Below, in pieces: positions 1,414 through 8,901 of a DNA stretch of 23,492 nt. Under the pieces are notes generated by a model that saw only the letters and a list, made by a program, of their open reading frames with translations, did not search any database and was not told where the DNA came from. The position numbers were made by a program, and so were the translations under genes. Each line of letters starts with the position of its first letter. Positions within the stretch are counted from its first letter, which is position 1. Source of the DNA: Escherichia coli (lineage in GTDB: Bacteria; Pseudomonadota; Gammaproteobacteria; Enterobacterales; Enterobacteriaceae); NCBI RefSeq assembly GCF_003334765.1, contig NZ_QOWT01000046.1. One strand, given 5' to 3'.

Positions 1414-1471
1414 AAAAAGGGCGGCAGAGCAGTCACGGAGTAAAACTGATACCGCCAAACGTCACCAGAAA
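1414..1471 (-). ncRNA. dicF: DicF small regulatory RNA (53-nt core 1419-1471 plus U-tract)
   Basis: Reverse complement of 1419-1471 reads TTTCTGGTGACGTTTGGCGGTATCAGTTTTACTCCGTGACTGCTCTGCCGCCC, which matches DicF as I recall it, followed by TTTTT; located just upstream of dicB. Confidence 0.85.
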
Positions 1472-5067: not shown

Positions 5068-5211
5068 GTGTTAATTTCTGGTCATGAGGTAATTTTCAGG
5101 AGGGCTTGTGGCAAAAGTTTTTACACAAGAAGAGCGGGAAAAAATTAAAGGGCAGGTTGTTGAACTCGTACGCCAGAGTGGGCGCGAGACGTTACGACAA
5201 CTGGAAACTAA

Positions 5212-6407
<1,196 letters not shown>

Positions 6408-6861
6408 CTAATACTGGGGCAACAAGATATCTGATGAGCGTTCTGGCCAGAGAGCTGGTTGCCAGTGGCGATGTATACAACTCTGGTTACGGGTTATTCC
6501 CGTCTGAACAGGCGCGTAAGGACTGGCAAAATGCCCGTAAAAAGCTCTCAAGGGCAAAGCTGAAGAAACCATCTGCGGTTGATCCGGACCTTATCTGGTC
6601 ATTACCTGACGGAGAAATACGTCGCTACGACAGGCGTCAGAACATAATCTGTCGCGAGTGCCGGAAGAGTGAAGTTATGCAGCGCATATTGTCGTTTTAT
6701 CAGGGTGATGTTCGGTATTTATTGAAGTGACGAGATTAAAGTGCATTAGTTCAGATGCAAATTGACATTTTGTGGCACAGGGTAGAGCTAGCGTGGTTGT
6801 CCGCTTTGTGCCAATAGCGGACATTGCTGGCTCATGGTATGTTAGTTTAAGGAGGCAGGTT

Positions 6862-7884
6862 ATGCCCTGTATTTCGCTGTGGTATAATAGTTGCGCAATT
6901 GATACAAGGGAGCGTTACATCGTGAAAATTGTTTTCGAGGTTAATGGAAAGAAAGTTCCACTAAAATCTTTAAAATACATAAGCAAAAAAGATCAACTCG
7001 AAGTAATGAAAAACTGGTTCTTTGAAAACTTTGAAGATCCGGCAAATGCTTGTCCGTATGAAAGTAGAGAAGGTGGCTATGCTTACATATATGGCGGGCC
7101 GTATGATGCGAGCGAAGAACTACAATCCATCTTCGGTCAATATGTTAAATCTGAGTATATTGAGGAATTAGTAGATGAATTACAAACACAATGTTTTGAC
7201 TGGTCTGGAAACTCAAATAATATAGATGATTGGTACGATGATGATATCTACGACGCTGTAACGTCTTCCGGTAATCCGTATTTAAAATTCATTGATAATA
7301 TCGATAAAATAAAAAAACTTGCAAAAGATAAAACTGAACAACAGCAAAAAAACCACTTGCTTAGTTTGCTCTACACGAATGTTATTACAGCTTTGGAAAC
7401 GCTTTATGTTGAGCTATTCATTAATTCTATAGAGAAAGATGATGTCTACATAGCCAATTGTATAGAAAAAGGTAAGACTGAATTTAAAGTAAGCAAAGAT
7501 ATTGCTGCGTTGCCTTTCAAGGGTGAACCCATCGAGAAAATTAGGGGAGAGCTAATCAGGTCAATCAAGGAACACTTGATCAGTGCAAGCTGGCATAGCA
7601 CTAAAAAGGTAATCGACCGCTATGAAGCTACATTCGATATAAAAGTACAAAAAGACTGTCCGATAGAAGCTATTGAATTGGCAACCCTCAATCGAAATCA
7701 CTTAGTGCATCGTGGTGGAAAGGATAAAGAAGGGAACCTCGTAGTGATTACAGACCAGGATCTTGAAACGCTGATTGAAAATGCATCGAACCTGGCAATT
7801 ATGCTCTACAACAGTTTAAATGTAGCAACGAATAAAACCACCATTTTGCAACCAGATGACAAACCGTTCATTCATGAATTTTAA
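6862..7884 (+). CDS. Hypothetical cargo protein with a C-terminal HEPN-like R-x4-H motif (start ATG 6862, or GTG 6922)
   Basis: Visibly AT-rich; GGAGG SD 6 nt before ATG 6862; an extended -10 TGGTATAAT at 6879-6887 suggests the GTG 6922 start instead; RNHLVH at nt 7693-7710 within a helical C-terminal region. Confidence 0.6.
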   Translation: MPCISLWYNSCAIDTRERYIVKIVFEVNGKKVPLKSLKYISKKDQLEVMKNWFFENFEDPANACPYESREGGYAYIYGGPYDASEELQSIFGQYVKSEYIEELVDELQTQCFDWSGNSNNIDDWYDDDIYDAVTSSGNPYLKFIDNIDKIKKLAKDKTEQQQKNHLLSLLYTNVITALETLYVELFINSIEKDDVYIANCIEKGKTEFKVSKDIAALPFKGEPIEKIRGELIRSIKEHLISASWHSTKKVIDRYEATFDIKVQKDCPIEAIELATLNRNHLVHRGGKDKEGNLVVITDQDLETLIENASNLAIMLYNSLNVATNKTTILQPDDKPFIHEF

Positions 7885-7899
7885 TAGCGCAGGTCATAC

Positions 7900-8901
7900 A
7901 TGGATATTCGCACACGAAAGACAAAATTTTTAGAGTCGTTAGATTCAACTGAAGTGATACGCAAAGCAGTAAGTCTCGCTATAGATTGCATTATTGATAA
8001 TCATAATAGTAATGAAGATACCCCCTTAGTTATTACCAGCTATGATGATCTCTGTAGAATCCAGGTGCTAAATTATGTACAGGAGTTTTGCGAAGCTGCA
8101 TTCCCTGATATGGATGAATATTACTTTAGTCCTAACATACTTCGCATCAACGGCAAGACTAGTGAAGAAGCTTGTATTAACTTAATTAAACTCTTAAGAA
8201 GTACAAAAGGCATGCTATTCTGGTCCGATGCCCCATCGTGGTTCGCTAGCCTCCCCGACGGATTATTCCATGTTGTTAACATTGATCAAAAAATCGTTAC
8301 TCGCGGCCTTAATAAGAAAAACTCTAAGCCGACAATAATCAATAAAGATTACAGTGTAGATACACTACTATCAGAGCTATTTTTGAATGGCGCACACATG
8401 GAGCAACCCAACGTACACAACGTTTCTGAGGGAAACATGAAGTTCTATGATGAATGCCATGCTGGATTAATCAGACCAATACCCGCTCCAATAGGCGCGT
8501 CATACGATGAAGAGATCACAATTAATTCTCCAGATTGGCAAAAGCTCGCGTGTGTAGCTTTACGCCGCTATCAGTCGAAGGAATGTCATGACGGAATGCA
8601 ATGGGATACAACCGATCATGGTTGGACTGATGTAATCGCGTATCCATTCGTCGAAGAAATACAATCAATGGATAATAGTGGTTATCGACAATGTTTAGTT
8701 GGGCTGGTCACAATAAACAATTCAAATGCAAATTCTCCGTACCTATCTACCGTTTGGATACATCTATTTTATCGCAGGAGAGGGTTATTAAGTAAGTTAT
8801 GGCCAAAATTACAAGAGTTATATGGAAGTAACTTCGAAATTGAGCGACCTAATGAAAATATGAAAGCATTTCTGAAAAGTGCGAAACACGCAGATTACTA
8901 A
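7900..8901 (+). CDS. Hypothetical cargo protein (333 aa), partner of the preceding gene
   Basis: Same strand, 15-bp gap, same AT-rich composition; C-terminal LSTVWIHLFYRRRGLLSKLWPKL loosely resembles a GNAT-type beta-strand/R-x-x-G motif (weak). Confidence 0.6.
   Translation: MDIRTRKTKFLESLDSTEVIRKAVSLAIDCIIDNHNSNEDTPLVITSYDDLCRIQVLNYVQEFCEAAFPDMDEYYFSPNILRINGKTSEEACINLIKLLRSTKGMLFWSDAPSWFASLPDGLFHVVNIDQKIVTRGLNKKNSKPTIINKDYSVDTLLSELFLNGAHMEQPNVHNVSEGNMKFYDECHAGLIRPIPAPIGASYDEEITINSPDWQKLACVALRRYQSKECHDGMQWDTTDHGWTDVIAYPFVEEIQSMDNSGYRQCLVGLVTINNSNANSPYLSTVWIHLFYRRRGLLSKLWPKLQELYGSNFEIERPNENMKAFLKSAKHADY

Follow-up and report, generated by a model that had tools for sequence, protein, structure and literature searches.

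Does the AT-rich pair of genes carried by this Escherichia coli prophage form a phage-defence module, and if so, which gene protects the cell and what does its neighbour contribute? The pair lies in the window analysed here, a stretch of 23,492 nt from contig NZ_QOWT01000046.1, and a sequence-only reading of this DNA had proposed it as an undescribed defence candidate.

A cargo slot between the replication genes and hok/sok

The locus and its boundaries comprise the following features.

6786..6831, no strand assigned: left boundary hairpin element, the left arm of a 46-nt imperfect inverted repeat bracketing the cargo slot
6880..6888, plus strand: extended −10 promoter-like element TGGTATAAT upstream of gene A, read by eye, with a poor −35
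6922..7884, plus strand: gene A (DS-33A, WP_014639476.1), 320 aa, with a HEPN/RES-NTD1 module and a RiboL-PSP-type HEPN domain
7900..8901, plus strand: gene B (DS-33B, WP_000354965.1), 333 aa, with an alpha/beta N-terminal domain and a C-terminal GNAT domain
9006..9051, no strand assigned: right boundary hairpin element, the right arm of the inverted repeat

The two genes are co-directional, and B begins 15 nt downstream of A. Gene A starts with GTG at 6922, with an AAGGGAG ribosome-binding site approximately 10 nt upstream. Judging from the sequence, an earlier start at 6862 is unlikely, because 63 homologues align from MKIVF and the TGGTATAAT element falls inside that extension. Since a published clone with a ‘predicted native promoter region’ was active (PMC13092281), we infer a promoter upstream of gene A. 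The TGGTATAAT element is kept in derivatives that have lost A, where it lies directly upstream of B; a scan for consensus promoters and terminators gave nothing above chance and did not pick up this element.

The AT-richness noticed by eye was borne out by calculation. Both genes (GC 0.361 for A and 0.390 for B) lie inside the 2.2 kb where GC is lowest in the window, the 2178-nt stretch at 6798–8975, with a GC content of 0.385 against 0.491 elsewhere, approximately 2.3 standard deviations under the mean. GC3 was 0.35 for the insert, compared with 0.52–0.55 for backbone genes. The window also has further, shorter AT-rich stretches, for example at approximately 20.5–21.5 kb.

The flanks also agree with the initial description of an island between an IS5-disrupted gene and hok. 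On the left, IS5 (5212–6407, with a CTAA target duplication) is inserted within a DUF977 gene; on the right, sok/hok lies at 9350–9674, on the far side of gene B. Homology to prophage backbones with other cargo stops at approximately 6825–6860 and restarts at 9016–9024. The corresponding slot is filled by SMODS+SLATT in strain LR-24 and by QueH with a Dcm/NgoMIV restriction-modification system in an O157:H7 strain, and measures only approximately 220 nt in strain A20. Both boundary elements contain GTCCGC-N12-GCGGAC (6799–6822 and 9015–9038), a motif that occurs three times in the window, where 0.03 matches would be expected. The locus is carried in a variable cargo slot that a Rac/Qin-like lambdoid prophage has between its replication genes and hok/sok. 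In E. coli lambdoid prophages, this position following the DUF977 gene is a hotspot for defence cargo, bounded by two related hairpins. This hotspot with its paired hairpins is new here.

DS-33 and its HEPN protein

The two-gene insert is the published anti-phage system DS-33, without any difference. Its defence was validated in E. coli MG1655 by the DefensePredictor study (Science 2026, doi 10.1126/science.adv7924, PMC13092281), of which Table S6 lists NZ_QOWT01000046.1, plus strand, 6922–8901, WP_014639476.1 and WP_000354965.1, defensive = TRUE. Both protein sequences in Table S8 are identical to the window translations of A and B. With contig, coordinates and proteins all the same, the locus was not undescribed, as had been supposed. 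The main text of that paper neither discusses DS-33 nor gives it a mechanism, and the locus was identified from the supplementary tables; a literature search for the accession numbers, HEPN+GNAT defence and ‘DS-33’ found no paper text.

The supplementary plaque counts, given in Table S7 as the log10 reduction in plating for two replicates, show that DS-33 lowers the plating of T7, T3, Bas67 and Bas26 by approximately 2–6 logs (PMC13092281). The mutant follow-up covered these four phages and T5. The wild-type system gave 3.8/2.6 for T7, 3.3/2.4 for T3, 4.0/2.0 for Bas67, 5.0/5.9 for Bas26 and 0.8/0.1 for T5. Defence was lost in the ΔHEPN construct (−0.5 to 0.5) and in the R258A construct (−0.3 to 0.8), and was kept in ΔGNAT (T7 4.8/4.3, T3 3.3/3.3, Bas67 4.0/3.3, Bas26 5.0/4.9). 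These results show that defence needs A and its residue R258, and that B is dispensable for the published phenotype. The suspicion that this is a defence locus was therefore correct.

Protein A is composed of two modules.

6922..7266, plus strand: A residues 1–115, HEPN/RES N-terminal domain 1 (PF18870), the best-conserved part of the protein
7276..7845, plus strand: A residues approximately 119–308, helical HEPN domain
7693..7713, plus strand: RNHLVHR, the Rx4H catalytic motif (R258, H263) and R264

The N-terminal module matched PF18870 over residues 26–92 (Pfam, E 2.2e-4), as did 38 of the 63 homologues at E≤0.001 and 60 at E≤0.1. Its conserved pattern is WF..NFEDP..PYES.EGGY.YI.GGPY, in which P45, G58, G59 and P60 are invariant in the 63-homologue alignment. 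One protein (P0117) combines this module with a PIN_8 domain, and others combine it with RES domains (PMC3710099); the module is presumably sensory or regulatory. As the sequence-only reading had proposed from its R-x4-H motif, A has the helical HEPN fold, and the placement of the two domains relative to each other is uncertain in the model (pTM 0.65). Because R258, H263 and R264 are invariant across the 63 homologues, with identity down to 26%, RNHLVHR is not a chance match. The window protein itself falls under the threshold of the Pfam HEPN family PF18735 (RiboL-PSP-HEPN), with no match at E≤10, and it is the homologues that reach it (29/63 at E≤0.001, best 1.1e-10); the UniRef name for the exact sequence is RiboL-PSP-HEPN domain protein. 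For A and B, PADLOC and NCBIfam gave no meaningful match, and PHROGs matched only the unknown-function families 17908 and 16994. PADLOC likewise found nothing on ten distant A homologues, and profile searches of PDB sequences gave no significant solved chain with the A alignment (the set may not include HepS) and nothing significant with the B alignment.

The domain architecture of A is the same as that of the HEPN/RES-NTD1 + HEPN and RiboL-PSP-HEPN family (PF18870, PF18735), although the window protein matches PF18870 and not PF18735 above threshold. Klebsiella KPK_1764 is an example of HEPN/RES-NTD1 in the survey of Anantharaman et al. 2013 (Biol Direct 8:15, PMC3710099), a purely computational work that predicted RNase-based conflict functions. 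HepS of the Salmonella prophage Gifsy-1 is an anticodon nuclease that a phage protein activates (Nature 2026, PMC13043305). It resembles A as a stand-alone HEPN protein, with an Rx4-6H motif and no partner gene, whose gene follows the replication genes in a lambdoid prophage. The two differ in the position of the motif (R100–H105 versus R258–H263 in DS-33A) and in phage range (siphoviruses versus T7-like and some T5-like phages for DS-33). HepS is the best-characterised example of how DS-33A might work.

According to a published table, HHblits remotely matches A to PD-T4-2_B, which is named a RiboL-PSP-HEPN protein, at a probability of 96.1 and a coverage of 0.55 (PMC13092281). The PADLOC models of PD-T4-2 matched neither A, B nor the ten distant A homologues (E≤0.1–1). 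The PD-T4-2 system of Vassallo et al. 2022 was reportedly selected on T4, whereas the DS-33 mutants were retested on T7, T3, T5, Bas67 and Bas26.

We assign a probability of approximately 0.85 to the reading in which the locus as a whole is DS-33 cargo, with A as the probable infection-activated HEPN RNase effector and B as a non-required accessory. The C-terminal HEPN domain of A would most probably be a metal-independent RNase, inactive in uninfected cells and switched on by infection with T7-like and some T5-like phages, and the HEPN/RES-NTD1 module would be the likely sensing or auto-inhibitory part. Activated A would cut host and/or phage RNA (tRNA, mRNA or rRNA), translation would stop and no progeny would be formed. 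B would be a GNAT-type acetyltransferase-like accessory, co-transcribed with A and not required for protection. Among these steps, we infer the RNase activity, the RNA target, the trigger, the sensor role of NTD1 and a possible abortive-infection outcome.

Protein B and its association with A

The C-terminal features of B are as follows.

8410..8898, plus strand: B residues approximately 171–333, GNAT fold
8764..8766, plus strand: codon CTA for L289 of B, which is Pro in 43/43 aligned homologues and in the common E. coli allele

The GNAT-like segment first noted in B proved to be a C-terminal domain with the GNAT fold, structurally nearest to protein-lysine acetyltransferases (alpha-tubulin acetyltransferase, ESCO1) and polyamine acetyltransferases; the Pfam match of the window protein to PF00583 has an E of 0.16. 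The N-terminal domain is alpha/beta and family-specific, and PADLOC on this half and on seven B homologues found nothing. A tblastn search of 50,697 deposited phage genomes with B gave no match. In the region of the acetyl-CoA-binding motif A (R/Q-x-x-G-x-G/A after strand beta4 in an intact GNAT), the family has the consensus WIHPFYRRxGxL with a variable Gly position, and P289 sits in WIHPFYRR at the start of this region, where the window allele has L. This allele was found on 31 contigs, and the P allele on at least 1000. The tested B thus bears P289L at an otherwise invariant GNAT residue, which is also new here. Because the ΔGNAT test used this minority allele, the dispensability of B may not extend to the common P289 allele (WP_000354966.1).

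The view of A and B as an obligate two-gene module did not stand. The pair recurs outside E. coli, restricted to close relatives: Erwinia (93/89% identity for A/B) and Aeromonas caviae (86/79%), in the latter within a mobilisable element. It is not an obligate operon, since the partners do not co-occur across the family (among the 58 full-length A loci, B is present at only 2) and ΔGNAT keeps full defence. An all-against-all comparison of two genes on each side of the 58 A loci (ORFs ≥70 aa) detected no recurring partner family, no neighbour recurring beyond copies of one locus. Dickeya homologues of A, at 74% identity, also stand alone. These data show that A is normally a solo gene.

What, then, does B do beside A? 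It may be an independent cargo gene (a separate defence, counter-defence or phage-serving acetyltransferase) joined to A in one lineage and merely co-transcribed, a reading that we hold as a real possibility at somewhat under even odds. B or a close relative occurs without A in a Serratia conjugative element, in Shewanella, in Marinomonas adjoining an Abi_2 gene, and within a TerB/BrxC/ResIII ... Mrr_cat/HEPN_Toprim_N defence island; at 86% identity there are loci in which A was deleted from the pair and B retained; and the GNAT domain is also found as a stand-alone protein of approximately 160 aa, one of which directly follows a phage replication gene. The undiminished defence of ΔGNAT points the same way. 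However, the ΔHEPN and R258A constructs still carry B yet protect against none of the five retested phages, the DefensePredictor log-odds for B are just 1.08 (PMC13092281), and three distinct mobile elements, from E. coli, Erwinia and Aeromonas, share the gene order and 15-nt spacing, which hints at linkage.

That conserved tight operon is also compatible with B tuning A down by acetylating A, its activator or its target, which would limit self-damage, for example by sparing lytic growth of the prophage. We regard this as unlikely. The structural proximity of B to protein-lysine acetyltransferases would suit such a role, as would the protection by ΔGNAT, which equalled or exceeded that by the wild type (T7 +1.0/+1.7, T3 0/+0.9, Bas67 0/+1.3 and T5 +1.0/+0.5 log) except against Bas26 (0/−1.0 log). 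These differences are modest, were measured in two replicates and may stem from changes in construct expression. Moreover, most A homologues have no B, B persists without A, and cells tolerate A alone, since a strain bearing the ΔGNAT plasmid appears among the listed strains (PMC13092281). The narrower proposal, that B damps the nuclease through acetylation of DS-33A itself or of its trigger or target, for example so that the resident prophage can finish its lytic cycle, is slightly less probable again; the ΔGNAT result would understate such a role because the cloned allele has P289L at an invariant residue. MNT antitoxins, which AMPylate HEPN toxins, would offer a loose analogy to B tuning A down.

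The HEPN-MNT systems (e.g. SO_3166/SO_3165, PDB 5yep, 7ae2, 8xdj) differ from this locus in that the partner of A is a GNAT protein and not a nucleotidyltransferase, that B is not needed to keep A harmless, and that A has 320 aa with an extra N-terminal module. Membership was rejected on the GNAT neighbour, the solo occurrence of A in 56 of 58 loci and the viability of the ΔGNAT strain. B shares with TacAT/AtaRT/KacAT-type toxins a GNAT fold and a mobile element, but it has no RHH/DUF1778 antitoxin and an extra N-terminal domain of approximately 170 aa, no NCBIfam model matches it, and its nearest structures are protein-lysine/polyamine acetyltransferases; the gene upstream is a HEPN protein, and this membership was also rejected. 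HEPN and GNAT domains both serve as toxins in known toxin-antitoxin systems, and A and B adjoin on a mobile element, but a classical pair, with a HEPN toxin neutralised by B or a GNAT toxin by A, is highly improbable and was rejected because each gene occurs on its own and cells with either deletion construct are viable (each was plated), and also given the lack of an MNT or RHH/DUF1778 partner and of any NCBIfam/PADLOC toxin-antitoxin model matching A or B.

Significance for prophage HEPN defence

The reading of DS-33 as a HEPN effector with a non-required accessory adds little as a discovery, as the locus had already been found, cloned and shown to be defensive in a 2026 paper. Reading the raw sequence alone nevertheless singled out a real defence system and R258, the residue whose mutation abolishes the published defence. 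As for the GNAT partner, the sole test of its role was made with an allele that departs from the family at an invariant residue. If B does damp A, the locus would be an acetylation-controlled HEPN defence, a mode of control that we did not find described for HEPN systems. The DS-33A family (HEPN/RES-NTD1 + HEPN) is widespread in many bacterial phyla and usually solo, and HepS indicates that solo prophage HEPN proteins can be anticodon nucleases activated by a phage protein (PMC13043305).

Identity and prophage setting of the cassette

The sequence-only reading had proposed this two-gene island as an undescribed defence candidate, but the locus is already known: it is the validated defence system DS-33. 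Table S6 of the DefensePredictor study (Science 2026) lists, under the working id GNAT, NZ_QOWT01000046.1 (GCF_003334765.1), + strand, cds 6922-8901, with WP_014639476.1 and WP_000354965.1 marked as defensive TRUE, system DS-33 (PMC13092281). The cassette coordinates in the window coincide exactly with this entry, which presumably makes the window this very contig, and the window translations of genes A and B equal both protein sequences in Table S8 (PMC13092281). Table S8 further assigns A a DefensePredictor log-odds of 9.45, against 1.08 for B, and reports that HHblits matched A remotely to PD-T4-2_B (PMC13092281). DS-33 is not discussed in the main text of that study, and our literature search found no later paper on it.

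Features of the window
5212-6407: IS5 copy, splitting the DUF977 gene; CTAA target-site duplication at 5208-5211 and 6408-6411
6786-6831 and 9006-9051: paired, related hairpin elements in inverted orientation, each GTCCGC-N12-GCGGAC
6922-7884, +: gene A (DS-33A), GTG start, ribosome-binding site AAGGGAG
7900-8901, +: gene B (DS-33B), 15 nt downstream of A, same strand
9350-9674: sok/hok, downstream of the A-B cassette
1419-1470 (-), 14049-14295, 14374-15051 and 23273-23471: Rfam matches elsewhere in the prophage

The window belongs to a Rac/Qin-like lambdoid prophage of E. coli. Strain S88 carries the same DNA adjoining ompW, with the gene order integrase, exonuclease, dicB, repressor/cro, ydaT, replication gene, DUF977 gene, two hypothetical genes, hokD, DUF968, rusA and antiterminator; the DUF977 gene split by IS5 in the window is intact in S88. 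The Rfam elements found elsewhere in the prophage (DicF, three tRNA genes, two STnc100 copies and IS009) are usual components of a lambdoid prophage of this kind.

A had a GC content of 0.36 and B of 0.39, compared with 0.49 for the remaining window, and the A-B region is the lowest-GC stretch of the window at the 2.2-kb scale; third-position GC was 0.35 in the cassette and 0.52-0.55 in the backbone genes. The gene calls, the composition and the IS5 and sok/hok flanks therefore confirmed in every particular the observation of an AT-rich, co-directional cargo pair located between an IS5-disrupted gene and hok. Of the two starts offered for A, 6922 stood, with its GTG codon, ribosome-binding site and homologue alignment. 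The longer frame from 6862 was rejected, because the alignment of 63 homologues begins at MKIVF and the TGGTATAAT element lies within the extension.

The whole cassette was detected in 205 of 5426 complete E. coli genomes. Both flanks were present in 3788, and in only one of these did they lie within ~0.8 kb of each other. In LR-24 the slot is occupied by SMODS+SLATT, in an O157:H7 strain by QueH and a Dcm/NgoMIV restriction-modification system, and in A20 by no more than ~220 nt. Backbone homology to prophages with other cargo stops at about 6825-6860 and restarts at 9016-9024, that is, at the two hairpin elements. These elements may be terminators, or conserved sequences favouring cargo exchange by recombination at a defence hotspot.

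Published phenotype and the two proteins

The proposal of a defence module was upheld by the published listing and by the reduced plating of T7, T3, Bas67 (Berlinvirus, Autographiviridae) and Bas26 (Epseptimavirus, Demerecviridae).

Log10 drops in plating, two replicates (Table S7, PMC13092281)
Wild type DS-33: T7 3.8/2.6, T3 3.3/2.4, Bas67 4.0/2.0, Bas26 5.0/5.9, T5 0.8 (small plaques)/0.1
ΔGNAT: T7 4.8/4.3, T3 3.3/3.3, Bas67 4.0/3.3, Bas26 5.0/4.9, T5 1.7/0.5
ΔHEPN: -0.5 to 0.5
R258A: -0.3 to 0.8

By these values, defence depends on A and on the arginine of its motif, but not on B. ΔGNAT defended slightly more strongly, a small effect in two replicates that would fit B acting as a damper.

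Residues 26-92 of A match HEPN/RES N-terminal domain 1 (NTD1; Pfam, E 2.2e-4), as do 38 of the 63 homologues, while 29 of the 63 match RiboL-PSP-HEPN. The predicted HEPN R-x4-H motif was borne out by the alignment: R258, H263 and R264 of RNHLVHR are invariant down to 26% identity, as are E159 and W224-H225, and the N-terminal motif (P45, G58, G59, P60) is more conserved still.

A complete search of 1.84 billion representative proteins recovered only ~10 clusters of full-length B. Positions 177-330 of B were matched by many stand-alone GNATs of ~160 aa, one of which lies directly after a phage replication gene; no match was found for the N-terminal 170 residues, which are specific to the small B family. 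Residue 289 (codon 8764-8766), where the acetyl-CoA-binding region (GNAT motif A) begins, is Leu in the window, and also in the published DS-33B clone, since the printed protein sequence equals the window translation. Pro is found at this position (WIHPFYRR) in 43 of 43 aligned homologues, in the common E. coli allele and in every other copy translated; in the protein collection, Leu289 is a minority allele, on 31 contigs as against at least 1000 for Pro289. It follows that B has so far been judged dispensable only on a possibly weakened allele.

Distribution of A and B

With each species represented by a single genome, the scan for A-family loci yielded 80, spread over Proteobacteria, Planctomycetota, Cyanobacteria, Acidobacteriota and other phyla. 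B was present at 2 of the 58 loci with full-length A (E. coli S88 and Erwinia sp. ErVv1), and no other neighbour recurred at these 58; in Dickeya, A (74% identity) is solo, next to a ParE/HTH pair. In Aeromonas caviae (L099-L102), the pair, at 86% identity for A and 79% for B, is carried by a relaxase-bearing element and retains its 15-nt spacer, indicating that A and B have travelled together between distinct mobile elements. At about 7200-8300 in these loci, the pair immediately adjoins a SIR2 gene and a cREC_REC gene on the opposite strand, a grouping that looks like a small defence cluster. Beyond E. coli, co-occurrence of the pair extends to Erwinia and Aeromonas caviae, and is not a general rule.

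Two independent deletion derivatives have lost A and retained B. In loci L096 and L097, the equivalent of window positions 6895-7822 is missing, the region upstream of A being joined to its last 60 nt (5913-5924 in L096), with B retained; L106 and L108, from Citrobacter/Enterobacter, have nothing of A but its final 195 nt (3790-4000 in L106). In an E. coli prophage variant (L098, about 5600-6603), a deletion removed A, the beginning of B and the remainder of the replication module, leaving a 320-aa chimera (P0148) of a DnaC-like helicase-loader N-terminus (residues 1-126) and B residues 133-333. Distant B homologues occur on a Serratia conjugative element, beside an Abi_2 gene, and within a TerB/BrxC/helicase ... 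Mrr/HEPN_Toprim_N island. A is normally solo, B can be separated from it, and the two are joined only within a narrow clade, a distribution that matches the published DS-33 genetics.

Proposed action of DS-33A

NTD1 is a portable module. In the 2013 HEPN survey (PMC3710099) it is fused to HEPN, RES and other domains, with a Klebsiella protein as the example; the survey passages on this domain do not include the architecture of the metagenomic protein P0117 (407 aa), a PIN_8 nuclease domain followed by a C-terminal HEPN/RES-NTD1. The closest working model is HepS, a solo HEPN anticodon nuclease located after the replication genes of the Salmonella prophage Gifsy-1; homology between DS-33A and HepS was not supported by any test run. 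The data establish the identity with DS-33, the HEPN and GNAT folds, the conservation of the motif, the genetics and the mainly solo occurrence of A; for DS-33A, we infer RNase activity, and likewise an RNA target, a trigger and an infection outcome. In the best-supported reading, DS-33A would be a HEPN RNase activated by infection, with R258 and H263 as the putative catalytic residues and NTD1 probably acting as sensor or auto-inhibitor.
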